UHGV virus genome: UHGV-0070112
Source of the DNA: a virus
DNA length: 32,150 bases
Direction: 5' to 3' (one strand)
The notes beneath the pieces were generated by a model, which did no database searches, was not told the DNA's origin, and saw nothing but the letters and a program-made list of their open reading frames with translations. Positions within the stretch are counted from its first letter, which is position 1. Each line of letters opens with the position of its first letter. Positions 6,657 through 29,297 of the stretch are shown here, piece by piece. Position numbers and translations under genes: made by a program.

Positions 6657-7242
6657 CGCGCGGCCGCGACGTTAGAACCATGGGTATTTTAACTACATAA
6701 GGTTATGAAGATCTTCGGAAAAAATGAGATGATGGTTTGTTTGGTTATTTAATGAGCGAAAACAGCCAAAATCCCCATGCAGGGATGATAAAAAACGTCA
6801 TTGTGTAGACGACTGCAGGCTGTAATTTATTCAAATTAAATTTCCTTAGTAGGGCTCTATGTGTCCTACAACATCCAACCTACCTAAAGACATTGATTGA
6901 TACAAGAGGAAAAACACTACTTTTTTATCAAATTGGGATCGGTTTTGTTTCCGATGGCGCGGCATTATACGGAGATAACCCAAGTTATCAACAGAAATTG
7001 CCAGCATATGTACGCAAAATGTGCTGTTTCTAATTTTGAGATGGTTGTGGTGCCGGGTGCCTCCCGGTGAGCATGCCCCAACAGACATTACTCGCGCGGT
7101 ATTCACAGGGCTTTCGCTCTATTAGTTGGACGCCCCTCCGCATAGGGGGATTCACCACACGGATAATTTAGGATGTAGTCATAGGCGGCGTCAATAACTG
7201 ACACTCTGTCAAAGGCACCATTACGATGCCTTTTGCACAGTG

Positions 7243-9005: not shown

Positions 9006-9043
9006 TTACAAGGCAGGCGCTCTACCAGCTGAGCTAAACCAGC
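9006..9043 (-). tRNA. tRNA-Thr(UGU)-like 5' half (acceptor, D-arm, anticodon stem 5' strand and loop)
   Basis: Minus strand GCTGGTT-TA-GCTC-AGCTGGTA-GAGC-G-CCTGC-CTTGTAA with U33 and anticodon UGU. The expected 3' anticodon-stem strand GCAGG is absent; the sequence runs into the HNH RBS. Overlaps the last codons of the N6 methyltransferase. Confidence 0.45.
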
Positions 9044-10083
9044 AAATTGCGCATTTCACTGACCGTCTGTTCAAATCTCTCGGTTTCCAGTTCGACACCT
9101 AGTCCCCTTCGCCCGAGAAGAGCAGCCTGCTTGAGCGTTGAGCCTGATCCAAAAAAGAAATCAGCTACAACATCACCCGGGCGGCTACTCGCTGTGATTA
9201 TCTGCTCCAGCATATCCGCAGGCTTTTCACATGGGTGTTTACCTGGATAAAACTGAACAGGCTTATGAGTCCAGACGTCGGTATATGGCACCGTGACCGA
9301 TACGCTGAATGGTCGCCGTAAACGGTAATATTCCTGCTGGAGTTCAGAATATTTTCGGCTTAACGATTGCCAGGTAGCGACAAGCTGGTGGTGAGGTTTT
9401 CCCAGTTCGTTGCGTGAGTGCTTATCCATGGCGATTTTTTGAAACAAAGCCTGCAACTTTAAATAATCGGCTTCGTTCGGTAGCTGCCACTGACTAAGGC
9501 CAAACCAGTGGGAAACCATATTTTTCTTACCTGTGGCTTCTGCAATCTGAGCGGACGTCACGCCAAGAGATTCCCGTGCATCACGGAAGTAAGAAATTAA
9601 AGGCGTCATGACGTGTTGCTTTAACTCATTACACTTTGCGGCATATCCATCGTCTTTGGGCCTGTATGGCCCCTGATAATGGTCGGCAAAAATGATACGT
9701 TCCGTCGCCGGGAAATATGACCGGAGGCTTTCTTTATTGCATCCGTTCCAGCGTCCCGAAGGTTTAGCCCAGATGATATGGTTGAGCAGGTTAAACCGCT
9801 CTCTCACCAACAGCTCAATATCCGCTGCCAGGCGGTGCCCACAGAACAGATACATGCTGCCGGCAGGTTTTAACACTCGCCAGAACTGTGCCAGACAGCT
9901 ATCCAGCCAACGTAAATAGTCCTCGTCCCCCTTCCATTGGTTATCCCAGCCGTTTGGCTTCACCTTAAAGTAAGGCGGATCGGTAACAATAAGATCAATG
10001 GAGTTATCGGGTAGCGATGGGAGGTATTGCAGGCAATCAGCATTGATTAATTCAATACTGGATGTTTTTACAGTATTTTTCAT
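9034..10083 (-). CDS. DNA N6-adenine methyltransferase, beta class
   Basis: 349 aa; motif IV IVTDPPYF near the N-terminus and motif I FFFGSGSTL near the C-terminus, the beta-class order. No adjacent restriction endonuclease other than the small HNH ORF downstream. Confidence 0.8.
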   Translation of the reverse strand: MKNTVKTSSIELINADCLQYLPSLPDNSIDLIVTDPPYFKVKPNGWDNQWKGDEDYLRWLDSCLAQFWRVLKPAGSMYLFCGHRLAADIELLVRERFNLLNHIIWAKPSGRWNGCNKESLRSYFPATERIIFADHYQGPYRPKDDGYAAKCNELKQHVMTPLISYFRDARESLGVTSAQIAEATGKKNMVSHWFGLSQWQLPNEADYLKLQALFQKIAMDKHSRNELGKPHHQLVATWQSLSRKYSELQQEYYRLRRPFSVSVTVPYTDVWTHKPVQFYPGKHPCEKPADMLEQIITASSRPGDVVADFFFGSGSTLKQAALLGRRGLGVELETERFEQTVSEMRNLLV

Positions 10084-13668: not shown

Positions 13669-14199
13669 CTAAACAGTCAGATCTTTAAGCTTCTGCACGG
13701 CTTTACCAACTTCAGCCATAGCATCTACGAACTCGTCAAACTTCCTGCTGGCCATTCCATATGCCTGGAGAATTTCCAACTTCAAGGGATCGAGCTGTTT
13801 CTTAATTTCTGCACGATCCCCTGCTTTTTTCTCCGCTTCCTCTGCCGCTTTGATCAAGGCGTCGGCCTGTTTACGTAATGCTTCCGGAGTTACTTCGAGC
13901 TGTTTATTCATTTTGCATTCCATCGTCGGCTGAGGAGGTGTCATTACAGGCGCCACAGATTTGTGACCATATTTCGGGTGGTGCAAGGTAGTAGACCTTC
14001 CATCATCTATCACGCAGAGCATCCCGCTTTCCCGGATTATTTCGATCAGGGTCTCTTTGTCTTTGCGATTGAGCCCACTGTATGCCGCCACTTTGTGCGT
14101 CAGGTGGGTTAGCGTTGCGCCTTCTGGTTGCCTCTCTACAAAACGCTTTACCCTGGAAAGCACTGGTTGCAGGTGTGGGGGAGTCATTCTCATGTTCAC
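13669..14199 (-). CDS. Hypothetical protein
   Basis: 176-aa ORF in the nin-like block; helical, Lys/Glu-rich C-terminal half. Confidence 0.45.
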   Translation of the reverse strand: MNMRMTPPHLQPVLSRVKRFVERQPEGATLTHLTHKVAAYSGLNRKDKETLIEIIRESGMLCVIDDGRSTTLHHPKYGHKSVAPVMTPPQPTMECKMNKQLEVTPEALRKQADALIKAAEEAEKKAGDRAEIKKQLDPLKLEILQAYGMASRKFDEFVDAMAEVGKAVQKLKDLTV

Positions 14200-15121: not shown

Positions 15122-15520
15122 TCAACCCACAGCTGTACATACATCCACCACTTTTTGATAGCAGACTATGGTGATTTCTACCCTGCCTCCTTTGACGATT
15201 TCACCCCATTCAATAGCCATACGCTTAACCTGGTTGTCGTCCTCCCAGATACCGGCATAAGTCAAAGCATCAAGAAGTGCCTTGTTGTAATTGTCCAGGT
15301 CACGCCGGCGATAGTCTGGCGGATAGAGAATAATTTCTACAGCTGCTGGCGCGGTAGATGGTTTTGGTATTGCACGCAGTTGCTCAATGATCGCTGACCG
15401 TACTGCATGTTTGAATTTACGGCCGGCTGCGCTGACAAGGTGTTTGCCTTTTGCGGGCCCCTTATTTGGGGACCGCCAGTAGGTGTTCACGCTGGGTGGG
15501 AATGGAAGAATAAATTTCAT
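15122..15520 (-). CDS. rusA: Holliday junction resolvase RusA
   Basis: 132 aa; PPSVNTYW and RRRDLDNYNKALLDALT are characteristic RusA motifs. Confidence 0.8.
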   Translation of the reverse strand: MKFILPFPPSVNTYWRSPNKGPAKGKHLVSAAGRKFKHAVRSAIIEQLRAIPKPSTAPAAVEIILYPPDYRRRDLDNYNKALLDALTYAGIWEDDNQVKRMAIEWGEIVKGGRVEITIVCYQKVVDVCTAVG

Positions 15521-15993
15521 TCTGCCTCCAGCACTATTTTCAACTCAAACGGAACATCTCCTCCGCAATAGCAGAGCGGGCCAAGGTCAGACATGAGGCT
15601 CCACAGGGTCATTGACGTATAGCCATTTTCGTCTGTTATCGGGGGCGAAAAGTCCCCGAAGATCCTCGGGTGCTGGATTCGATTCTGCTCGTGTTGTTTT
15701 TCCAAATGTCTGAGGGAAACTTCATTAAGTTTCACTTTTACGATGCTGTTGAGATTGACCGATATTTCTCTGGCCAACAGCGAAGGGGTGATACTGATAC
15801 CGCGAGAAACCCCGCGGGTGATTGTGATAACACCCTTTTTCTCCAACGCCTTGAGGTGTGTTGCTGCTGCATTGGGGGACCGGCACCCCAGCATGCCGGT
15901 CAGTTCGTAAGTTGTAGGCGGAAAACCATGTTTACGCTGATATTCGATCAGGAGGTCCAGGACCTCCTGCTGCCTTAAGGTCAAGGAAGTCAT
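15517..15993 (-). CDS. LexA-like N-terminal DNA-binding domain protein without S24 peptidase domain
   Basis: Start revised to ATG 15993 (MTSLTLRQQEVLDLLIEYQRKHGFPPTTYELTGMLGCRSPNAAATHLKALEKKGVI...), closely resembling the LexA winged-helix domain. C-terminal ~80 aa unrecognised. ATG overlaps the C5-MTase stop (ATGA); its own stop overlaps the rusA start. Confidence 0.6.
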   Translation of the reverse strand: MTSLTLRQQEVLDLLIEYQRKHGFPPTTYELTGMLGCRSPNAAATHLKALEKKGVITITRGVSRGISITPSLLAREISVNLNSIVKVKLNEVSLRHLEKQHEQNRIQHPRIFGDFSPPITDENGYTSMTLWSLMSDLGPLCYCGGDVPFELKIVLEAE

Positions 15994-17960
15994 GCTGCCT
16001 GCTCCTCTCTGTTCACGCACATTTCGGGTAAATTGGCGCGAACCAGCGCTTCGGCGAACGGCGGCGGGACGGCATTTCCACAGCGCGCAACCTGCTTATC
16101 TTTCGCGTATTTCACGCCGCGGTAATCCTGGTCAATGATGTACCACTCGGGGAAGCCCTGCGCCCGGTAAAGTTCGTGTGGCTGCAGCATGCGCATGCCG
16201 ATATCAACGATGCGGTAAGTCACTCCGCCGATTTCCACCAGACCGGTGCATTCCTCTCCGCAGTATTCCTGCAGGAACGACAGCACCTGCTGCGCTCGCT
16301 CTTCGTCATAGTCCTCGACTGCCAGAGTCGTTTTAACCTCGCCTACGTGCTGGCCACCAGCAGTGATAGTCGGCATCGGCTCGTCAGTGCGCTGGCCATC
16401 GCGGCATGTACCACGGAGCTTGATCAGATGAGACGTAACCATTGCGGCATCAGCCTTTGTCGTCATGGTTTGCAATGGCTCGCTAACGTCACGTGGCCTG
16501 CTCTGCCCAGCGCGACCGCCAACACCAACAATCTGAGCAGTAACCAGCGCATGATGATCGACGGTAGTAACTGAATGAGCTGGTTCATCCAAGTCAATAC
16601 CGGCGCCCTGATAATTCCCGCCATAGTGTTTCGCCAGGAATGCGGATACCAGTTGCGATTTACCGCCGCCGCCCGCGGTGATTGTTGCGCTAGGTTCGTC
16701 GGCACGGTGTCCGATGCTGGCGCCGAACTGCCGGGCGATAACCGGAGCGACGACACAGGCGCGCGATTCTTTCATGATGGTGTGAGCGGGTTTATCGAGC
16801 GGGCGTGGTTTAGCCTGGTACTCGCTGCCGCCATTGCCAGCCAGGAACGGCGCCAGCTCTGCTTCAACAATACCCAGAGCGTGACCATTCCCGCCCGGGC
16901 GTTTTGCGGTACCGGCCGTCACCGTCGGCAACGGATCGGTGACTTCCTGCCCGGTAGCTCCGGTTCGGAATTTTGTCAGATGAGGTACCGCAATTGCGTA
17001 GCCGTGGGTTTTCGTAATCGTCTGTAGCGGATCGTCCAGCGCCTGTCCCCGGAAACAGTCGTATTTGCCGCGTGTCGTTGTGTGATTGCACTTCACGATG
17101 AATGGCGAAGCGCTTTCGATAACAAAGCGCTGAATGCCGCGGGCAATCCGTTTTAGCGTATTCTCTGCCAGTGACTTTTTGCGACCGAAGATGCTCGGCG
17201 CGGGGATTGACCAGTCTATGCATTCCGCAGCTGTACGCCACGGCTCCAGCTGGCCCGCCAGCACGGCGGCAGACTTCGGATCCCCGTGCGTGGCTTCCGG
17301 CCAGACTATCGGTTTCCCGTCCCGGCGCATCACCATGAAGAACCGCTTACGGATGGTCGGCGCGCCATAATCGCAGGCGCGCAGCTCGCGAAAATCGACG
17401 ACATAACCAAGCCCGGCAATTAAGCGCTTGGCCTGCTCGCTATCCGGTGAAAACTCCAGAAACTCGCAACACTCCACCAGTGCAGGATGATCTGCTGGAA
17501 TACCGGTGGTAAGCATCCCGACAAATGCATTGAAAGTTTCACCGATGCGTGCCGGATCCGGTCGCATTTCTGCCGCGAGTAACGGACCCCACGTCTTAAA
17601 CTCTTCGACGTTTTCCAGCATCATGACTCGCGGGCCAACATCCAGCGCCCAACGAATGACGATCCATGCCAGCCCTCGAATAGCTTTCTCTACTGGTTTA
17701 GCACCTTTCGCTTTAGAAAAGTGACGACAGTCAGGCGAGAACCATGCCAGGCCGACAGGCTTGCCACTGGTAGCGGCTAATGGGGATACATCAAACACAC
17801 TTTCGCAATAGTGAAGCGTGTCGGGATGGTTAGTGCGGTGCATAGCAACGGCGTTAACATCGTGGTTAATCGCGATATCAACGCTACGCCCTATCGCCAG
17901 CTCAATACCTGTACTGGCGCCACCGCCACCAGCAAAATTATCGACAATAATCTCACGCAT
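15990..17960 (-). CDS. DNA cytosine-5 methyltransferase with a long, repeat-containing variable region
   Basis: 656 aa; motif I FAGGGGAS, catalytic-Cys region FSPDCRHFS, ENV motif MLENVEEF, C-terminal motif-X-like CGNAVPPPFAEAL. About 450 aa between ENV and motif X carry reiterated segments (LPTVTAG, SATITAGGGG, MPTITAGG, LQTMTT, LQTITKT). Confidence 0.85.
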   Translation of the reverse strand: MREIIVDNFAGGGGASTGIELAIGRSVDIAINHDVNAVAMHRTNHPDTLHYCESVFDVSPLAATSGKPVGLAWFSPDCRHFSKAKGAKPVEKAIRGLAWIVIRWALDVGPRVMMLENVEEFKTWGPLLAAEMRPDPARIGETFNAFVGMLTTGIPADHPALVECCEFLEFSPDSEQAKRLIAGLGYVVDFRELRACDYGAPTIRKRFFMVMRRDGKPIVWPEATHGDPKSAAVLAGQLEPWRTAAECIDWSIPAPSIFGRKKSLAENTLKRIARGIQRFVIESASPFIVKCNHTTTRGKYDCFRGQALDDPLQTITKTHGYAIAVPHLTKFRTGATGQEVTDPLPTVTAGTAKRPGGNGHALGIVEAELAPFLAGNGGSEYQAKPRPLDKPAHTIMKESRACVVAPVIARQFGASIGHRADEPSATITAGGGGKSQLVSAFLAKHYGGNYQGAGIDLDEPAHSVTTVDHHALVTAQIVGVGGRAGQSRPRDVSEPLQTMTTKADAAMVTSHLIKLRGTCRDGQRTDEPMPTITAGGQHVGEVKTTLAVEDYDEERAQQVLSFLQEYCGEECTGLVEIGGVTYRIVDIGMRMLQPHELYRAQGFPEWYIIDQDYRGVKYAKDKQVARCGNAVPPPFAEALVRANLPEMCVNREEQAA

Positions 17961-18906
17961 GAGCGGTCCCCCTCATGCTGCCGACCAGCCCACCAGCAAG
18001 GGTGATGATTTCGCTGGTGGGCACGCGCTCCAGCCACAACTGGTTAATATGGGCCTTCAGCTTGTTCTGCTGGGAGAACTCCAGATCCTCTGCGCCTTGT
18101 ACCTGTCCAAAGACGAGTCCAACTTCCAGTGGCCAGATCCGGGATTCAGGCTCAGCCAATGATGCAACAGCATCGGGGATGATCACTTCAGGAGACTGAA
18201 CTGGCGAAACTGGTGACAGGAATTTTCCTGCAGCAAACTCAGCCAGCGCCATACTTGCGCGCCCTTTTGCTTCCAGCTCAACGCGATCGATATAGCTAAA
18301 ATGTTCACCGCGCCAGGTCTTATCAAATACCGCAATGGCCCCGGCAAAGAATGCGCTGGTGGGCTTCTGCTTTTCGTCGGCCGGCACAAACCACGTTGGG
18401 AGATCGAATCCAATACGACCACGAATAAACATGATGTGATCGGCATATTCCGGCCACCATGTTTCACTTGTTGCTGACTTCACGAGGTAAATGTAACGAC
18501 CACCCTTTTCACGCTGCTCGGCGGTATAGTTCATAATATGAGTCATGCCAGTGATGGCTTGTTTTTCATGGTACTGCGAGCGGCTGTACGGCGGATTAGC
18601 AAAGGCCGCTCCTCCGAGTTCTACCAGACGACCAGACCAGTCCTGCGTCAGCGCATTATCTTCAGCGGTATACCATGCCGGGCATTTTGTATTGCTGTCG
18701 TCTGCAAACAGGTCCAGCACCAGCGGGCCAAACAAAGCGTTAACGCCCCAGAACAGCAGATCAGGGGTACGCCATTGATCCCCGACTTCTTTCAAATAAT
18801 GCGAACTTCGCTGGCGCTGTTCCTCAAGTGCCAGGCAATAAGGGCTGACGCTTTTTGTTAAATTTTGCTCTTCTGCGGTCATAGCTTCTTGTACTTCCTG
18901 ACTCAT
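17953..18906 (-). CDS. Phage Dam-type DNA N6-adenine methyltransferase
   Basis: 317 aa; DLFADDSNTKCPAWYTAED and AFANPPYS motifs of the phage Dam family. GGGGA RBS. Has an extra ~100-aa C-terminal region. Confidence 0.8.
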   Translation of the reverse strand: MSQEVQEAMTAEEQNLTKSVSPYCLALEEQRQRSSHYLKEVGDQWRTPDLLFWGVNALFGPLVLDLFADDSNTKCPAWYTAEDNALTQDWSGRLVELGGAAFANPPYSRSQYHEKQAITGMTHIMNYTAEQREKGGRYIYLVKSATSETWWPEYADHIMFIRGRIGFDLPTWFVPADEKQKPTSAFFAGAIAVFDKTWRGEHFSYIDRVELEAKGRASMALAEFAAGKFLSPVSPVQSPEVIIPDAVASLAEPESRIWPLEVGLVFGQVQGAEDLEFSQQNKLKAHINQLWLERVPTSEIITLAGGLVGSMRGTAHA

Positions 18907-19084
18907 AGTTTTCCCCTGCGCTGATCAGCATTAACAAGTGCTCTCAGTAACCAGTAACGGCGATCAAAGCTGAAAAGGTCATTTCTGAGGAGTGCATATT
19001 TTCTGCGAAAAATAACGTCGTGCTGCCACCAGTAACGCCAGTGATGCAAACGCACAAGGCGCCGGAGACTTATCAAAATCCTCT

Positions 19085-19543
19085 TCAATCGGAGCACAAG
19101 TCACCTCCGCAGTAATTTCCGGCCAGATAGCATGACCCGGCGGAATCATTCATGTTTCTGGCGTTTCGAACAGAAGCATTCTTAAGACGCAGGTATCGCT
19201 CTCTTGCTTTAGCCGTACAGTTGCTGTCACAAAGTTGCTGCCATACCGTCGCCGCACGGCGGTAATAGCGTTTCTCTTCCAGCTTTTTGGCTGTCGCTTC
19301 AAGGGCAAGAATCTCCCCCGAAAGCCCACCAGGCAGGTACTCTTCAATATCGATGGATCCCGCTACGAAGTAGATAAACCCACCAGTAACTTCAACGCTG
19401 GCAAGTTCCCCGTCGTAGTAAAGGCGATGAACAGCGCTCTTCACTGTTACCGGTTTGGTTCCAGGAAATGCCGCAGTGATATCGCGCAGCATTTTGCCGG
19501 GATTCTTCTCAATAAATTCAAAGATCGACTTGGCTATGTTCAT
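19085..19543 (-). CDS. Hypothetical protein with PerC-like C-terminal region
   Basis: 152 aa; C-terminal KKLEEKRYYRRAATVWQQLC...RERYLRLKNA resembles PerC-family regulators. ATG overlaps the stop of the upstream replication gene. Confidence 0.4.
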   Translation of the reverse strand: MNIAKSIFEFIEKNPGKMLRDITAAFPGTKPVTVKSAVHRLYYDGELASVEVTGGFIYFVAGSIDIEEYLPGGLSGEILALEATAKKLEEKRYYRRAATVWQQLCDSNCTAKARERYLRLKNASVRNARNMNDSAGSCYLAGNYCGGDLCSD

Positions 19544-20451
19544 CCCCGGAACCCCCGTGGAATCGTGGTTTGTACTGGACTAATTGAATTAACATCCCGC
19601 GGTCTGGTTTTGTCCCACGACTCCCTTGGCGGGCGGCCTTTAGCATCCCAACGGATAGCGCTTTGCAGATATCCCTCGAATTTTTTAGGGCCGAAAAGTG
19701 TCTCGGGTCGCATGTACTGGTATTGCTCGTCGTTGCCATGCCAGTGCTCATGCTTGATGTCAATTACCAGTTTCAAGTCGCTAACGGTATGACCTTCGCG
19801 GAGGCGGGCGCGAATGTTCTCCAGCGAGGTCTTAGATTTCTGGTAACGGGAACCGCTGACCAGATTCAGGTGTGCCAGAACTTCGATCGCGTTATCGGTA
19901 ATAACAACTTCAGGATCCGGCTTATCGTCGGGTTCCGCAGGAGCCCGACAAGAAGGTTTTTTAGATGACGGATCTAATGACGGATCTAATGACGGATCGC
20001 CTTCAACCATTGAGGGGTCCTCCCGCAATATTTGAGGGGGTACAGACCCATTATTTGAGGCATCAGAATTTGACCCCTCAAATTTTGAACCCTCAAATTC
20101 TGAGGCATCAAATTTTGATTGTTCACGTGGCGTTGCGTAGAAAATTTTTGCTTCAGCTGCTGCACGTTCCAGCATGTCAACATTGAGTTTATAAACGTTC
20201 GAATTATTCTTTCCGCCCACGCGCCGTTCCTGCTTCTTCAGCCAGCCTTTAGCCTGAAGCTTTTTGATAGCGCTGCGGACAGTATTCTCGCTCTTGGCGC
20301 CGATCTGTCGCTGAATAGTGGTTACCGCTGGCCATGACACACCTTCGTCATTACTGAAATCTGCCAGGCGAGCCATGACCGCTATTTCTGAGATTATCAG
20401 CCCTTTGAAAGCGCATGCTTCCCATACGAGGCCGTGTAATTTACTGCTCAT
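19540..20451 (-). CDS. Replication initiation protein (O-like) with conserved phage C-terminal domain
   Basis: 303 aa; N-terminal HTH-like region, central low-complexity linker encoded by the iteron repeats, C-terminal VLAHLNLVSGSRYQ...LKLVIDIKHEHWHG typical of phage replication proteins. Confidence 0.7.
   Translation of the reverse strand: MSSKLHGLVWEACAFKGLIISEIAVMARLADFSNDEGVSWPAVTTIQRQIGAKSENTVRSAIKKLQAKGWLKKQERRVGGKNNSNVYKLNVDMLERAAAEAKIFYATPREQSKFDASEFEGSKFEGSNSDASNNGSVPPQILREDPSMVEGDPSLDPSLDPSSKKPSCRAPAEPDDKPDPEVVITDNAIEVLAHLNLVSGSRYQKSKTSLENIRARLREGHTVSDLKLVIDIKHEHWHGNDEQYQYMRPETLFGPKKFEGYLQSAIRWDAKGRPPRESWDKTRPRDVNSISPVQTTIPRGFRG
19965..20115. repeat. Iteron-like repeats (candidate origin) inside the replication gene
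   Basis: Direct repeats gacggatctaat x3 (19965-20000) followed by at least six copies of TTTGAGGG / CCCTCAAA-type units in both orientations (20008-20115). Confidence 0.5.
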
Positions 20452-20620
20452 GGCTGCCCTCTACTTCCCTGAACTTGCGTTGAAACTGATCGAGTGGGCT
20501 AAAGCACTCGTGGGAATAGCCTTCCCGCAGGTAGATGACGCGACGTGTCTCAGGCTCCCAGCGGATAACTCTGACTGGATTGCCATAGTGGTCTTTGAAC
20601 TTCCGGTTAACTTCTCGCAT
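20441..20620 (-). CDS. Hypothetical 59-aa protein, coupled to replication gene
   Basis: Manual translation MREVNRKFKDHYGNPVRVIRWEPETRRVIYLREGYSHECFSPLDQFQRKFREVEGSHEQ. GGAGGG RBS; stop overlaps the replication-gene start. Replaces the track ORF 20461..20808, which is in another frame. Confidence 0.4.
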   Translation of the reverse strand: MREVNRKFKDHYGNPVRVIRWEPETRRVIYLREGYSHECFSPLDQFQRKFREVEGSHEQ

Positions 20621-20792
20621 AACGCTTTTGCCCTCCGGTTAAAGACCCCCACAACTCCGCGTGCCCGACTGTGGTTACACTTGACCCATTTACCGCATAC
20701 CATGCGCTCATACCGAAACGACGAAACGCCCGGGATCGGGTACATCCGTAGTTGCGGTAATTGAAGATTTACGATTAAATTGCTCATGCGGA

Positions 20793-21344
20793 TTATTTCT
20801 CCATACACAAAGATTTATTCGCCACGACGCCCGGAGCTGCACACTCGCGGGCGTCACTATTTTCTGGCAGGCAATAAACACGAGAAATCAGGTTGAGAAA
20901 CGTCATCAGCGTGACCCTGAACTGGTAGGCGATATCATTCAGACTTTGCCACTCCCCGTGTGTAACCACCCCATCATCGATATATTCCCGATAGGCGCTG
21001 ACCAGCTCGCCGAGTTGTCCCACCAGCTCCGCCAGCTTCAAACCAATCTCTTCGTTCTCGTCTTCATGAGCTGCGCCAGATACATGGATCCCGTTGTCGG
21101 TTTCACGTGAAAAAACATCGGCGATGTAGCTAACACCTGCTGCCTTCTGCAGGACCATTGCCCAGCCCATAGGGAATATCTGATCTCCACCAGCACGCAG
21201 CCGGTTAAAGATCGCGTCCTGGGTGGTATCCAGAATCTCAGCTGCTTCGATATAGCCACCAGGTAACGCGGCTATTGTTTTACGGATTGCTGCCACCAGC
21301 CACGCGGGCTGTTTTTCTACTTTCCAGGTTGGTTCATTACCCAC
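20793..21344 (-). CDS. cII-position regulatory protein (family uncertain)
   Basis: Start revised to GTG 21344 with AAGGGG RBS just after the cro stop; the track start at 21431 would overlap cro by 59 nt. Occupies the cII position. Confidence 0.4.
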   Translation of the reverse strand: MGNEPTWKVEKQPAWLVAAIRKTIAALPGGYIEAAEILDTTQDAIFNRLRAGGDQIFPMGWAMVLQKAAGVSYIADVFSRETDNGIHVSGAAHEDENEEIGLKLAELVGQLGELVSAYREYIDDGVVTHGEWQSLNDIAYQFRVTLMTFLNLISRVYCLPENSDARECAAPGVVANKSLCMEK

Positions 21345-21372
21345 GGTGTACCCCTTATCTCTGTGGTTCCTA

Positions 21373-21582
21373 TCAAACTTTTTGTTCTTTAAGCTTGCTA
21401 TACAGCTCCGGTTGGAAAACAAGTTTCCCATCGGTGCGGTACGCGGCTTCAGCAGCCCTCCCTTTTGGGATCAAGCGACCGGGTCTGTTCCGCCACTGAT
21501 AAACAGCTTCGCTGGATATGCCAAAGAACTCGGCTACCTTCTCAGCGTTTCCAAAGTACTTTTCAACATCATCGGTGGTCAT
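21373..21582 (-). CDS. cro: Cro-like repressor (HTH)
   Basis: 69 aa with HTH (VAEFFGISSEAVYQWRNR). AGGAG RBS. Divergent from cI across an operator-bearing gap. Confidence 0.65.
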   Translation of the reverse strand: MTTDDVEKYFGNAEKVAEFFGISSEAVYQWRNRPGRLIPKGRAAEAAYRTDGKLVFQPELYSKLKEQKV

Positions 21583-21682
21583 AATGGCTCCTTTAACTAA
21601 GTTTGATTAGATAATAATTACCAATCTATCTTTGGTCAATAAAAACTAAGATTGCTTAGCTTGATTGACTACTGGTGTGTAA
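21583..21682. promoter_or_regulatory. Right operator/promoter region between cro and cI
   Basis: 100-bp AT-rich gap carrying CTAAGtttgaTTAG (21596-21609) and CTAAGattgCTTAG (21645-21658); the same half-site family recurs downstream of cI. Confidence 0.45.
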
Positions 21683-22309
21683 ATGGAAACTGTCGGACAA
21701 CGAATAAAATCGCTTAGGCGAATCACCAGAACCTCACAAAAAGAGCTTGGGAAGTTTTGTGGGGTCAGTGATGTCGCAGTTGGGTATTGGGAAAAGGACG
21801 TAAACGTCCCAGGAGGGGAATCTCTTTCCAAACTAGCAAAATTCTTCAATACATCAATTGATTACATACTTTTTGGCACTGAGTTTGAGGGAAACTTAAT
21901 AACTAAGATGCGAAAAGTTCCCGTGATATCGTGGGTGCAAGCAGGATTATTCACTGAATCAAAGCCTGAAGATGTCTTGCATGATGCCGAAAAATGGGTG
22001 GAAACGTCTCTCCGCATCAGCGATAACTCGTTTGCCCTTGAAGTAAAGGGAGACTCAATGACAAATCCTAATGGACTGCCCACGATTCCTGAAGGCGCAA
22101 CGGTCATCGTTGATCCAGACATTGAGCCAATTCATGGAAAGATTGTAGTTGCACGAATAGATGGGACCAACGAGGCCACGGTCAAAAAACTGGTTGTAGA
22201 CGGTCCGCAAAAATTTCTTGTCCCGCTAAATCCCCGTTATCCTAACATCGCCATCAATGGTAACTGCGTCATTATTGGTGTGGTTAAAGGCGTTCAATAC
22301 GAGCTCTGA
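21683..22309 (+). CDS. cI: CI-type repressor (HTH plus S24 LexA-like peptidase domain)
   Basis: 208 aa; N-terminal HTH (TSQKELGKFCGVSDVAVGYWEK), C-terminal S24 domain with catalytic-serine motif KGDSM and downstream Lys. Confidence 0.85.
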   Translation: METVGQRIKSLRRITRTSQKELGKFCGVSDVAVGYWEKDVNVPGGESLSKLAKFFNTSIDYILFGTEFEGNLITKMRKVPVISWVQAGLFTESKPEDVLHDAEKWVETSLRISDNSFALEVKGDSMTNPNGLPTIPEGATVIVDPDIEPIHGKIVVARIDGTNEATVKKLVVDGPQKFLVPLNPRYPNIAINGNCVIIGVVKGVQYEL

Positions 22310-25749: not shown

Positions 25750-25949
25750 TGGCACATGTGAAAGTGAAAGAATTGGTTGCTGCAGCATACGCTGCAGCAC
25801 CTGACCTACCACCAGCAGCAGCACAATTAATGCAAGACATAGCGTCAAGGCTGGATGTCACCTTTGTCGCCCTTACAGAGGCAATGGACCAGAACACCGC
25901 TATGGCCGCGATGATAGCGAACCTGAGCGAGGAAAACAGAAATGGCTAA
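25749..25949 (+). CDS. Hypothetical small protein
   Basis: 66 aa, Ala-rich; ATG overlaps the upstream stop and its 3' end overlaps the ParB-like start. Confidence 0.4.
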   Translation: MAHVKVKELVAAAYAAAPDLPPAAAQLMQDIASRLDVTFVALTEAMDQNTAMAAMIANLSEENRNG

Positions 25950-26727
25950 AAACTCGATCGATGCTTATGGCGCCAGCGGCAAGACAAACGTTCTGATGTT
26001 CGAGCCGGAAAATCTGCATATTGTCACTGACAAGGCCCACCCGCTTTACGATGAGCGAGTCAGTCTGCCGATCGATGAAGGGATGGTGCTGAATATCAAG
26101 GAGCTGGGTGTTCTTGAGCCGATTATTGTCTGGAAAGACCCTGAAAAGGGGCTCACCTGTGTGGTTGTCGGTCGTCAGCGCGTTAAACATACGCTGGAAG
26201 CCAATAAGCTCCTGCTGAAAGAAGGCAAAACACCGCTGCTTGTTCCTGGAGTCGTTAAGCGTGGGTCGGCATACCAAATGGCCAAATACATGGTTAGCGA
26301 AAACGAAATACGCCGACCTGATACGCCGTTAGGTCGCGCTAAGAAAATGTCCGACGCGCTGGACCGTGGTCATGACGAGGACGACCTTGCGGTGTTGTTT
26401 GGCTGTAGCGTTCAGACCGTACGAGCAACGCTGTCACTACTCGATGCTACCCAGGCTGTTCGGGAAGCGGTGGAGTCCGGCACAGTCACCGTTACCCAGG
26501 CGCGTCAGCTTGGCGCGCTCCCACCTGAAGAGCAGCGGGCAAAAGTGGCAGAAATCGAGCTGGCGACAGCTGGTACCAAAGGCCATGAAAAATCCCGTCG
26601 GCAGCGTCAGGTTCTCGGTGAGGCAAAGCGGCGCATCAAATCACGTAAGGAAATCACAAAAGCCCTCGAAGATGCCAGCGGCGAATATGCCGAGGCTCTG
26701 CTCTGGGTACTTGGGGAGGCGAAATGA
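25942..26727 (+). CDS. ParB-like nuclease-domain protein
   Basis: 261 aa; N-terminal ParB/Srx-like region (LEPIIVWKDPEKGLTCVVVGRQRVKH), central HTH-like segment, basic C-terminus. RBS GAGGAAAACAGAA. Confidence 0.65.
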   Translation: MAKNSIDAYGASGKTNVLMFEPENLHIVTDKAHPLYDERVSLPIDEGMVLNIKELGVLEPIIVWKDPEKGLTCVVVGRQRVKHTLEANKLLLKEGKTPLLVPGVVKRGSAYQMAKYMVSENEIRRPDTPLGRAKKMSDALDRGHDEDDLAVLFGCSVQTVRATLSLLDATQAVREAVESGTVTVTQARQLGALPPEEQRAKVAEIELATAGTKGHEKSRRQRQVLGEAKRRIKSRKEITKALEDASGEYAEALLWVLGEAK

Positions 26728-26858
26728 ACTTTGAACCTGAAAATTACAGCCGGCGCGCCCTTCTCTGGTTTGCGGCACTGGTTAGTGTTGCCGGGTGGGT
26801 TGCAGTAGTCGCTGTGACCTGGGGCGTATGCATGATGATCGAATGGGTGACGGCATGA
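26724..26858 (+). CDS. Hypothetical 44-aa membrane peptide
   Basis: Manual translation MNFEPENYSRRALLWFAALVSVAGWVAVVAVTWGVCMMIEWVTA. ATG overlaps the ParB-like stop and its stop overlaps the next ATG. Confidence 0.4.
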   Translation: MNFEPENYSRRALLWFAALVSVAGWVAVVAVTWGVCMMIEWVTA

Positions 26859-27079
26859 AAGTGAAATGCATCAAAGATACCGAGGGTTGGTGGACTGAGG
26901 GTGAAATGTATCCTGCCCGTGTAGTTGCTGGCGGGTTTGTCCAAGTCGGCGACGATGACGATCCCAATGGCGAAGGCTGGAGCGCTGCACCAATGGAATA
27001 TCGGGAAGATGGCTCGATAGTTTATCAGGTCGGCGGTATTGAGGGTGATGCGTTATTCGAGGAGGCCAGCCATGACTGA
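26855..27079 (+). CDS. Hypothetical small acidic protein
   Basis: Start revised to ATG 26855 (MKVKCIKDTEGWW...), 74 aa; the longer track ORF starts upstream without a convincing RBS. Confidence 0.4.
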   Translation: MKVKCIKDTEGWWTEGEMYPARVVAGGFVQVGDDDDPNGEGWSAAPMEYREDGSIVYQVGGIEGDALFEEASHD

Positions 27080-28106
27080 TATCACCGAACTGGCGCAGGG
27101 TGACATCGACCGGCGTTGTCTGGCAGAAAACACCTTTAATTTGATTTCCATGTCCGGCGGGAAAGACTCGTTAGCCCAATGCCTGTATGCCGTAGAGAAC
27201 GGCGTGAAGCACGATCGGGTGTTTGCTGATACGGGCCATGAACACCCTCAGACGATGGAATATCTGGATTATCTTGAACAAAAGCTGGGTCCGATTCGCC
27301 GGGTAAAAGCTGATTTCACTCGCCAGATTGAGGGTAAACGTAAATTCATTGCAGAAAAATGGCCGGTTTCCCTCGTTGAAGAATGCGGGATGTCTCACGA
27401 TGAAGCGGAGGAGCGTATCGCCCGTGCACTGGAAATCCTCCACCCAACCGGTAATCCATTTCTGGACCTGTGCATGTGGAAAGGTCGATTCCCGAGCACA
27501 AAAGCGCGGTTCTGCACGTTCGACCTTAAACATGAGCCTGTACGCACTCAGGTGGTGCTACCGGCGCTTGATGAATATGACGAGGTTATTAGTTGGCAGG
27601 GCGTACGCGCCCAAGAATCGCCAGCGCGGGCTGGCCTGCCGATGTGGGAAGAGGATGCAGATAATACTCCTGGTCTGCACGTCTATCGCCCAATTCTCAA
27701 TTGGCTGCATGAAGATGTGTTTGCTATTGCAAAACGCCATGGAATTAAGCCAAACCCACTATATCTGCAAGGCTGTAGTCGCGTTGGGTGTATGCCATGC
27801 ATTCACGCTCGAAAATCTGAATTAGCGGAGATTTTCCAGCGTTGGCCGGAGGAAATAGCCAGGGTAGCAAAGTGGGAGCGCTTCGTTGCAGCTTGCTCTC
27901 GCCGCGGCAACTCTACATTTTTCCCATCAACCCATGATCCGCGCCGGGCAGAACGTCGTATAGACGTTATCACGGTGGACGGTTACGGGATTGAAACCTA
28001 TCGCGACTGGGCGATGACAACCCGAGGCGGAGCCCAGTTCGATTTACTGGCTGAAGCTAACGACAAATCCGTGTGTAGCAGCGTTTATGCAGGGGTGTGT
28101 GAGTGA
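27072..28106 (+). CDS. PAPS-reductase-like (phosphoadenosine phosphosulfate reductase family) protein
   Basis: Start revised to ATG 27072 with strong GAGGAGG RBS. P-loop-like SMSGGKDS near the N-terminus and Cys-rich C-terminal region (CSRVGCMPC). Confidence 0.7.
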   Translation: MTDITELAQGDIDRRCLAENTFNLISMSGGKDSLAQCLYAVENGVKHDRVFADTGHEHPQTMEYLDYLEQKLGPIRRVKADFTRQIEGKRKFIAEKWPVSLVEECGMSHDEAEERIARALEILHPTGNPFLDLCMWKGRFPSTKARFCTFDLKHEPVRTQVVLPALDEYDEVISWQGVRAQESPARAGLPMWEEDADNTPGLHVYRPILNWLHEDVFAIAKRHGIKPNPLYLQGCSRVGCMPCIHARKSELAEIFQRWPEEIARVAKWERFVAACSRRGNSTFFPSTHDPRRAERRIDVITVDGYGIETYRDWAMTTRGGAQFDLLAEANDKSVCSSVYAGVCE

Positions 28107-28279
28107 TTGATCTTGCTGAGTGCGAAGCACGTGCACTCATTAAAAACCTGCAGCAGCGGATAAAGTGGAAAGAGGAATTAGCTCCTCTCAATCATCTTGA
28201 AGCGCAAGACCTGATTATTTATCGGATAGCACTTGAGGCGCTCGAAGAGGCATTGAATGAACGAAAAATTATTGAATGA
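28103..28279 (+). CDS. Hypothetical 58-aa protein
   Basis: Manual translation (M)IDLAECEARALIKNLQQRIKWKEELAPLNHLEAQDLIIYRIALEALEEALNERKIIE. GTG start overlaps the PAPS-reductase-like stop. Confidence 0.35.
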   Translation: MIDLAECEARALIKNLQQRIKWKEELAPLNHLEAQDLIIYRIALEALEEALNERKIIE

Positions 28280-28416
28280 CGACGTGAAAATTCTCCTTCG
28301 TCAGATAGAAGACGGCAAGCCATATGTCGAACTTATTAACTTCATGGTTAATCAGTTCGGATTGACGTACCGAGAGGCGCAGGAAGTCCATGAGAAGTTG
28401 AGTCGGGAGAGTGATT
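28255..28416 (+). CDS. Hypothetical 53-aa protein
   Basis: Manual translation MNEKLLNDDVKILLRQIEDGKPYVELINFMVNQFGLTYREAQEVHEKLSRESD. GAGG RBS; the next gene starts 2 nt after its stop. Confidence 0.35.
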
Positions 28417-28418
28417 AA

Positions 28419-29297
28419 ATGACCAATAACCAGTTAAACAGAGAACGTCTGGAAAAAATTAAATCATGGCGTGAAACCTATGGATCTGAAAGCAACGTAA
28501 TGCTGCCAGCAGAAGAAGCGGAAGAGCTGGCCCGCATGGCGCTGGACGCAATGGACGGTGAGCCGGTTGTGTTCACAGATGAACGAAACCTTCATCATAT
28601 TGCTATGGGCCGAGAAACATCTCTGATTTGGGGTAAACAAAACCAGCTGGCGGGGGATATCCCGCTCTATCGCCACGCGCAGCCAGCGCCGGACCGCGAG
28701 CAGGTACGCCGTGAGCACGCCGAGTGGTCACAGGCTACGTTCGGTAATGTCGGCCCGGTTGGCCCACTGAAGCACCTGGCAAAAGAGGCTATGGAGGCCG
28801 CAGCGGAACCAGATGACCTGTCGGAGTGGGCTGATATGCAATTCCTGCTGTGGGATGCCCAGCGCCGGGCTGGTATTACAGACGAGCAGATTACCCAGGC
28901 GATGATCGAAAAACTGGCGGTGAACAAACAGCGCGAATGGCCTGAGCCGAAAGACGGTGAGCCGCGGTTGCACATTAAAGATCAACCATCGGCGGTAGGG
29001 CCAGTAACAGATGCTATGGCTTACGCATTCCATCATGCGCTAACCGATGGTCCCCTGGGTGATGACGATGTGGAGGATATTAAGATCGGATTGAGAGCAG
29101 CTTTCGCTAATGTAACCACCTATCAGCCATTACCAGTAGTGCTGAAAGAGCATCAAATCCGTGAACTAATCAATAAACTGCGTGATATAGCTATTGAATA
29201 TCACAGTACACAACAATTGCGTGAGCATATTGCTTGTGTTGTCCACGCCGCTATGAGCGCGATCGCACCACCAGCGCCAAAAAGCGCAGTTAATTAA
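28419..29297 (+). CDS. DUF550-like (dATP/dGTP pyrophosphohydrolase-type) domain protein
   Basis: 292 aa; central REHAEWSQATFGNVGPVGPLKHLAKEAMEAAAEPDDLSEWADMQFLLWD resembles the DUF550/MazG-like domain of lambdoid early-left proteins as I recall it. Confidence 0.55.
   Translation: MTNNQLNRERLEKIKSWRETYGSESNVMLPAEEAEELARMALDAMDGEPVVFTDERNLHHIAMGRETSLIWGKQNQLAGDIPLYRHAQPAPDREQVRREHAEWSQATFGNVGPVGPLKHLAKEAMEAAAEPDDLSEWADMQFLLWDAQRRAGITDEQITQAMIEKLAVNKQREWPEPKDGEPRLHIKDQPSAVGPVTDAMAYAFHHALTDGPLGDDDVEDIKIGLRAAFANVTTYQPLPVVLKEHQIRELINKLRDIAIEYHSTQQLREHIACVVHAAMSAIAPPAPKSAVN

Follow-up and report, generated by a model that had tools for sequence, protein, structure and literature searches.

A lambdoid Klebsiella prophage sequence, the 32,150-nucleotide stretch of UHGV virus genome UHGV-0070112, carries an array of short palindromic repeats inside its replication initiator gene. 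We estimate with a probability of roughly 75% that this array is the replication origin of the phage, organised like ori-lambda, with the putative iterons forming dyads in the DNA that encodes the initiator's own linker. The stretch that we inspected, hereafter the window, represents 32 kb of a roughly 45-kb phage and is 99.5% identical to the unannotated phage Kp4866-6. When the array DNA alone was compared with a phage collection, only Klebsiella phage Kp4866-6 was matched, with 99% identity and no annotation.

Two repeat types in the linker of the initiator gene

The initiator gene encodes two folded domains joined by a flexible linker:

19540-20451, minus strand: replication initiator gene, O-like, 303 amino acids (aa); open reading frame (ORF) with HTH_36 N-domain and Phg_2220_C C-domain
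20134-20451, minus strand: codons 1-106, winged helix-turn-helix domain, presumed to bind the iterons (AlphaFold2)
19933-20133, minus strand: codons 107-173, disordered low-complexity linker with a predicted local distance difference test score (pLDDT) below 50; its DNA carries all repeats
19639-19914, minus strand: codons 180-271, helical C-domain (Phg_2220_C, DnaD-like), the presumed recruitment domain (Pfam and AlphaFold2)

Pfam placed HTH_36 at aa 22-71 (E 1e-8) and Phg_2220_C at aa 191-263 (E 2.5e-23), which are the two domains, in the same order, of the HTH_36 plus Phg_2220_C initiator group (phrog_428). The PHROG family phrog_428, 'replication initiation protein', matched over aa 20-302 with E 7e-64, and further matches were obtained with phrog_391 ('O-like', E 2e-30) and phrog_1701 ('DnaD-like helicase loader', E 1e-8). 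No Pfam match to the Phage_rep_org_N domain (SPP1 G38P / TIGR01714 type) was found in the initiator. In an AlphaFold2 model built from 17 homologues, the N-domain consists of helices at residues 3-16, 20-31, 43-50 and 55-68, strands at 71-74 and 86-89 and a last helix at 91-106, with pLDDT mostly between 74 and 90 and between 62 and 70 across aa 71-90. Foldseek searches with this model returned generic winged helices only, the best of MarR/ArsR/CodY type (E at least 0.012). NCBI names members of this family either 'conserved phage C-terminal domain-containing protein' or 'GntR family transcriptional regulator'; the latter label, on protein clusters P0068, P0077, P0083, P0091, P0098 and P0109, is probably a misannotation from the winged-helix domain. 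In the literature, we found no experimental study of Phg_2220_C/TIGR02220 proteins or of origins in this family.

The linker contains repeated pentapeptides (SKFDA-SEFEG-SKFEG-SNSDA) and tetrapeptides (DPSL-DPSL-DPSS), and its DNA contains two types of repeats:

20063-20118: four 11-bp palindromic cores with exact 15-bp spacing and 4-nt spacers CCCC/ACCC/GGCA
20063-20073: core, TCAGAATTTGA
20078-20088 and 20108-20118: cores, both TCAAATTTTGA
20093-20103: core, TCAAATTCTGA
20048-20058: fifth unit of the 15-bp phase, degenerate (minus strand TCAAATAATGG; gene nt 394)
20025-20035: further unit, 23 bp from the preceding unit (minus strand TCAAATATTGC, flanks CCCC/GGG)
19999-20017: isolated 19-bp dyad with a weaker core unit at 20003-20013 within it (minus strand CCCCTCAATGGTTGAAGGC)
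19965-20000: three tandem units of 12 bp that each contain GATCCGTCA, with GATC at 19971, 19983 and 19995
19885-19998: 5 GATC sites (the three above and two more) within 111 bp, the densest such cluster in the window

Three repeat-finding tools agreed that these repeats are real and non-random. Tandem Repeats Finder (TRF) reported 19965-19998 (period 12, 2.8 copies, 100% matches, score 68) and 20053-20118 (period 15 with 4.3 copies, or period 30 with score 72), both of which rank among the strongest tandem repeats in the window. Repeat finding also returned four copies spaced 15 bp apart and 30-nt inverted arms that are 80% complementary. The second repeat type is described most economically as an 11-bp palindromic core, TCAAAWTTTGA. 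With at most one mismatch allowed, this core has five matches in 32 kb against 1.23 expected, a number reached in none of 100 shuffles, and four of the five lie at 20063, 20078, 20093 and 20108. All four exact copies of CCTCAAAT in the window fall within 20030-20098. The unit at 20025-20035 is one mismatch away from TCAAATATTGA, the commonest core in its N-domain group, while a perfect 19-bp palindrome, GGGGTCAATGGTTGACCCC, is found at the place equivalent to 19999-20017 in relatives with the same N-domain (L060, L061, L062, L064 and L070). Across the array and the weaker units, the spacing is 15, 15, 15, 15, 23 and 22 bp; because units are phased at 15 bp, neighbouring 19-bp dyads overlap. 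The linker strand folds well singly (z = -4.8), as expected from the tandem palindromes.

The original prediction, made by reading the sequence, had placed the repeats inside the low-complexity linker of an O-like gene, and all of them indeed fall in the low-confidence aa 107-173 of the AlphaFold model. It had also counted at least six TTTGAGGG/CCCTCAAA units. Such units do occur in both orientations, but only five were found at one mismatch or less (20009, 20031 and 20054 on the plus strand, 20075 and 20090 on the minus strand), and TCTGAGGC at 20099 becomes the sixth only when two mismatches are allowed. The three tandem 12-bp units that it had read are present: ATGACGGATCTA occurs at 19965, 19977 and 19989, with 83% identity in the third copy, although the register first chosen, GACGGATCTAAT, is exact only twice and the third unit is imperfect. 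The repeats do not form a clustered regularly interspaced short palindromic repeat (CRISPR) array, as had been stated, since the units are 11-15 bp long, contiguous or overlapping, in both orientations and within an ORF. A lambda-type origin would be expected to comprise at least four repeated dyad-symmetric sites, located within the initiator ORF in the interval that separates the N-terminal DNA-binding domain from the C-domain. Such sites are present at the level of sequence, as four to five palindromic cores in 15-bp phase plus three more dyads, and the repeats at 19965-20118 lie in exactly that interval.

GATCCGTCA itself was found three times against 0.25 expected, and four GATC sites span 81 bp here compared with 172 bp in the next densest separate cluster (at 13680).

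Constraint on the linker DNA across related loci

We retrieved 80 related loci, with one genome per species. The pentapeptide repeats are found at the same place in all full-length relatives, with varying copy number. Codon usage was analysed in 64 of the related genes. The first serine of each repeat unit was encoded by TCA in 303 of 326 cases (93%), compared with 17% outside the linker, and the second serine of each unit by TCT in 206 of 237 (87%), compared with 9% outside. Lysine in the repeat units was always encoded by AAA (184/184, 100%), a codon used for 62% of lysines outside the linker. Residues of the N-domain with at least 90% conservation served as a control for shared ancestry; there, the commonest codon accounts for only about 50% of cases.

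An anchored consensus of 70 unique loci, aligned on a shared motif, revealed that the linker of roughly 150 bp is the best-conserved DNA of the gene, with both folded-domain regions poorly conserved as DNA. Within the 15-bp unit, 11 positions are conserved and 4 are variable, which is not the 3-nt pattern of codons; the residue encoded by the spacer varies freely and the core DNA is fixed. Cores occur at a density of 19.7 per kb in the linker versus 0.08 per kb in the remainder of the loci, and 194 of 241 adjacent core pairs are spaced by exactly 15 bp. A 12-bp element, TTGA-SSSS-TCAA (TTGASSSSTCAA), is found in relatives in both orientations and in the same codon phase, and its orientation sets the encoded peptide, DP[S/P] when it reads CCCC and EG[S/L] when it reads GGGG. 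Among relatives that are 89-93% identical, hardly any differences fall in the array or the GATC block, and the flanks bear synonymous changes; one variant among them lacks exactly 30 bp, the length of two units, and across relatives the copy number of the array changes in 15-bp steps. Because the synonymous codons are near-fixed, the conservation pattern is not that of codons and the array is almost invariant, the repeats appear as selected at the level of DNA. The linker repeats are thus constrained as DNA, not as peptide.

Two alternative explanations were weighed against these data. The repeats could belong to a slippage-prone low-complexity linker that is selected only as protein: with lengths of 12 and 15 bp they keep the reading frame, the encoded peptides are rich in S/D/K/E/G as is typical for flexible linkers, and the number of copies varies. 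This is highly improbable, since the synonymous codons are almost fixed across genera yet randomised in the conserved domain, and since one DNA element, TTGASSSSTCAA, yields unrelated peptides in its two orientations. The window unit at 20025-20035 is moreover read in another codon phase than the array units (CCT CAA ATA TTG versus TCA AAA TTT GA.). The codon-usage test and the N-domain control together ruled out a protein-only repeat. We likewise see hardly any chance that the constraint comes from an overlapping ORF or from an RNA element such as an mRNA structure or a small RNA. An antisense ORF on the plus strand (19965-20186) is open for 73 aa and the single strand folds well, with the z-score of -4.8 given above, but conservation has a period of 15 (11+4) and not of 3. 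No known RNA family (Rfam) or tRNA was found in the array region, nor any promoter-like site in or near the array on either strand; two terminator-like matches are located in other parts of the gene and do not exceed chance expectation.

We further noticed that the repeat sequence differs between two types of N-domain among the related loci. The common 'YVWD' type (65 loci) carries the core TCA(A/G)A(A/T)TCTGA (Y-type core TCAGAATCTGA), and its spacers vary. The window and prophages of Morganella, Erwinia, Mixta and Edwardsiella belong to the 'HGLVWE' type, which has the core SSSS-TCAA-NNN-TTGA-SSSS in both orientations plus the isolated perfect 19-bp palindrome. A repeat sequence that tracks the N-domain type is what an initiator-iteron pair predicts, and this indirectly supports the predicted binding of the array by the initiator. 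The GATC-containing repeat behaves differently: in the related loci (L002-L081), a GATCCGTCA...GATCCATCA pair, 24 bp apart and seen around the motif GATCCGTCAGTAA, is near-invariant DNA across genera and both N-domain types. The 12-bp units of the window are homologous to this pair, triplicated at 12-bp spacing.

An array of the window type was also noticed outside annotated initiator genes. In NZ_CP148542.1 (L089), a 16-kb circular E. coli 'plasmid', positions 2005-2170 contain a 15-bp array of the window type (TTGACCCGTCAA) together with two GATCCGTCAG elements. This region is unannotated and precedes a gene labelled 'ATP-binding protein'; the record is possibly a phage-derived replicon. Neither of two small 'plasmids' with the N-domain that were considered as minimal replicons was informative: NZ_CP148542 has the window-type array with the gene unannotated, and OR902858 has a truncated chimeric gene without repeats.

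Comparison with ori-lambda and alternative readings

Gene order in the window runs from integrase through early-left genes, cI (S24/HTH_3), a P22-type Cro, a cII-like gene and DUF4222 to the initiator gene, followed by a PerC-like activator, Dam, a C5-methylase, RusA and Q. The initiator gene comes after the cI/cro/cII-like genes and is therefore in the position of lambda O. Direct homology to lambda O was not supported, with nothing found by direct BLASTP against the initiator and a weak hhalign result (below), and the two proteins are connected only by PHROG cross-matches and natural hybrids. The families phrog_678 and phrog_345 match both proteins, and phrog_391, which is itself chimeric, matches the N-half of the initiator and the C-half of lambda O. 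A natural hybrid is found in the Edwardsiella locus L064 (3001-4772), where aa 1-200 are 48% identical to the window protein, array included, and aa 188-324 have 40% identity to lambda O aa 154-279 (E 9e-27). The gene that follows is a Phage_lambda_P homologue (PF06992, E 2e-51). Morganella locus L058 (3001-4730) is a hybrid of the same kind, again with a lambda P homologue next (PF06992, E about 1e-51). Since these hybrids combine the array with a lambda-O-type C-domain and P, the array sits exactly where ori-lambda sits. In these relatives, it occupies the slot between an O-type N-domain and a lambda-O-type C-domain that precedes P.

In lambda, the origin is located centrally within O. It is built from imperfect inverted repeats of 19 bp, whose G-tracts the O protein contacts, and an AT-rich tract comes after them; in Stx phages, two extra iterons add 13 residues to O (PMC7466680). 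HHpred assigns to lambda O the architecture HTH_36 plus Phg_2220_C (PMC5509034). Like ori-lambda in phage lambda and the Stx phages 933W and P27, the window array lies inside the initiator gene between N-domain and C-domain, contains several dyad-symmetric sites with G/C tracts at their outer ends and is set in a cro - cII - (O) operon. The lambda iterons, ATCCCTCAAAACGAGGGA, have CCCTCAAA in common with the window, and in both cases changes in unit number alter linker residues, here in the 30-bp deletion variant. Unlike lambda, the window phage lacks a P gene and has a C-domain of the Phg_2220_C subtype, and its array is accompanied by the additional conserved GATC-containing repeat.

Several observations weigh against an origin of the lambda type. 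The Pfam family Phage_rep_O (PF04492), with which lambda O scores 6e-36, left the initiator unmatched even at E up to 10, and a shallow profile-profile alignment of the initiator and lambda O winged helices with hhalign was weak (E 0.019, probability 2.5%). The window units overlap at 15-bp phasing (about 1.4 helical turns), whereas the 19-bp sites of lambda recur every 20-24 bp, and no clear 40-bp A+T tract of the lambda kind adjoins the window array, which itself is 60-64% AT. The nearest candidate for an unwinding element is a weak one:

20173-20212: 40-mer with the highest A+T content in the gene (72.5% AT, 98.8th percentile of the window), separated from the array by 55 bp

No P, DnaC or DnaB genes were found among the ORFs searched, early operon included. 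A lambda-type origin would be expected to be followed by a P-type helicase loader, while the next genes here are the PerC-like activator, Dam and the C5-methylase. Finally, constraint at the DNA level proves a function of the DNA (or RNA), not specifically an origin function. The cumulative GC skew falls almost steadily through 19000-21800 and has no extremum at the array, which is uninformative at that scale.

Dyad repeats recognized by a winged-helix protein could equally be operators. The array might then serve as initiator or regulator sites for autoregulation, copy control or roadblocking of the early operon, with the origin elsewhere. Such a role would fit with the lack of an adjacent strong AT-rich tract and of DnaA and IHF sites, as neither DnaA boxes (TTWTNCACA, at most one mismatch, 19013-21105) nor IHF consensus sites in the window were found. 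We nevertheless consider operators improbable, because the motif forms no second cluster in the window (32 kb of the roughly 45-kb phage), the array lies exactly at the ori-lambda position in natural O hybrids followed by P, and no promoter-like site that it could control lies in or near it. Alternatively, the linker DNA could be mainly a recombination joint, a 'boundary sequence' for swapping C-terminal or helicase-loading modules that is kept by exchange. At least two types of C-domain (Phg_2220_C and lambda-O type) are found behind this N-domain and array, the break falling directly after the conserved block, and phrog_391 is itself such a chimera. Exchange leaves unexplained the dyad symmetry, the 11/4 pattern of the unit, the 15-bp phasing and the co-variation with the N-domain, and we find it quite improbable as the main cause; a joint would, in any case, be compatible with origin function and is not an alternative to it.

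The origin reading, by which the array mirrors ori-lambda as had been predicted, was supported by every computational test open to us, namely gene identity and position, location in the linker, DNA constraint, co-variation with the N-domain and the O-P hybrids. In such an origin, transcription from the cro-side early promoter would precede initiator action. Initiator dimers would bind the 5+3 dyads through the winged-helix N-domain and form an O-some-like nucleoprotein complex, which would distort and open neighbouring DNA. The Phg_2220_C (DnaD-like) C-domain would then bring in the helicase-loading machinery of the host, as no P, DnaC or DnaB gene of the phage was found among the ORFs searched. 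We also considered, as a doubtful variant, an 'initiator-solo' origin with a mode of action unlike that of ori-lambda, in which overlapping 15-bp-phased 19-bp dyads would lead to a continuous initiator filament instead of wrapping, with the separate, N-domain-independent GATCCGTCA pair or triplet as a second element. That GATCCGTCA element, conserved across genera, could be a Dam/SeqA-gated switch that relies on the Dam of the phage, or the site at which the Phg_2220_C domain or a host factor acts. If such an origin exists, host DnaB would be loaded without a P/DnaC-type loader of the phage's own.

Origins inside initiator genes are textbook knowledge for lambda, P22, SPP1 and lactococcal phages, and according to the description of the TIGR01714 family, the low-complexity region of these proteins stems from direct repeats in the DNA that can function as a phage origin. 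An origin inside the initiator gene is therefore not conceptually new. The present candidate is an unannotated lambda-type case with variant features, which are the 15-bp phasing, the absence of a loader gene and the conserved GATC element. In E. coli oriC and in the heptamer repeats of P1 oriR, GATC sites cluster beside initiator-binding repeats, with Dam methylase available. The window similarly has a GATC cluster beside its repeats and a phage-encoded Dam, but with only 3-5 sites and no DnaA boxes. Speculatively, origin firing could be modulated by the conserved GATC sites (pair or triplet) in concert with the Dam enzyme that the phage encodes.

Among Gram-positive phages, many replisome organizers have the Phg_2220_C C-domain in common with the window protein. 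In oriL of the Bacillus phage SPP1, the initiator G38P binds direct repeats located inside the gene that encodes it, gene 38 (PMC6316719), and the window resembles it in having repeats of an initiator-bound type, here by prediction, inside the gene of the initiator itself. Unlike G38P, the window protein has an HTH_36 N-domain and not Phage_rep_org_N. SPP1 also encodes its own loader and helicase (gp39, gp40), neither of which the window phage has, and contains a defined AT-rich unwinding element, for which the window has a weak candidate. DopC (HTH_36 plus DnaT-C motif) is a domesticated lambda-O-like protein that illustrates modular evolution via C-domain replacement (Brezellec et al. 2017, PMC5509034). 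It has the same N-terminal HTH_36 type as the window protein; the dopC locus is without iteron-like sequences (PMC5509034), whereas the window and its prophage relatives carry the full array.

Neighbouring genes and implications

Several other genes, close to the initiator gene or elsewhere in the window, stand out:

20441-20620, minus strand: DUF4222 gene, 59 aa, overlapping the start of the initiator gene
19085-19543, minus strand: PerC-like 'transcriptional activator' gene, 152 aa (phrog_1324), in the place of lambda P
17953-18906, minus strand: Dam-family methylase gene, phage-encoded
15990-17960, minus strand: C5-cytosine methylase gene, 656 aa, with a long non-Pfam extension
9034-10083, minus strand: N6_N4_Mtase gene

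Close relatives have the DUF4222 gene at the same position, as do many annotated records of plasmids and prophages, so that its product is a possible partner of the initiator. The PerC-like gene is syntenic in close relatives, though absent in one comparison, and E. coli phage PhiR29_2 has a YfdN-like gene at its position. With the N6_N4_Mtase, C5-cytosine methylase and Dam-family genes, the prophage carries three DNA methyltransferase genes. A 25-bp tandem duplication at 15953-16000 (1.9 copies, TRF score 68) lies in the overlap of the end of the C5-methylase gene with the start of the next gene (15517-16020). The early-left operon at 25942-29297 on the plus strand encodes a ParB-HTH protein, a PAPS-reductase-domain protein and a dATP/dGTP pyrophosphohydrolase, possibly a nucleotide-modification or anti-defence cluster. 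Further away, at 6989-7189 on the minus strand, Rfam matched the gammaproteobacterial small RNA STnc100 with 71.6 bits (gathering score 47).

In this family, the least structured part of the protein is encoded by the most conserved part of the gene, since the DNA rather than the peptide is selected. The array provides a concrete candidate origin for the initiators of enterobacterial prophages, a large family with poor annotation. The natural specificity pairs, formed by two N-domain types and two cores, and the domain swaps with and without lambda P could help to establish how initiators recognise their origins and how the helicase is recruited, and could serve to build orthogonal lambda-dv-like replicons for Klebsiella and Enterobacter.

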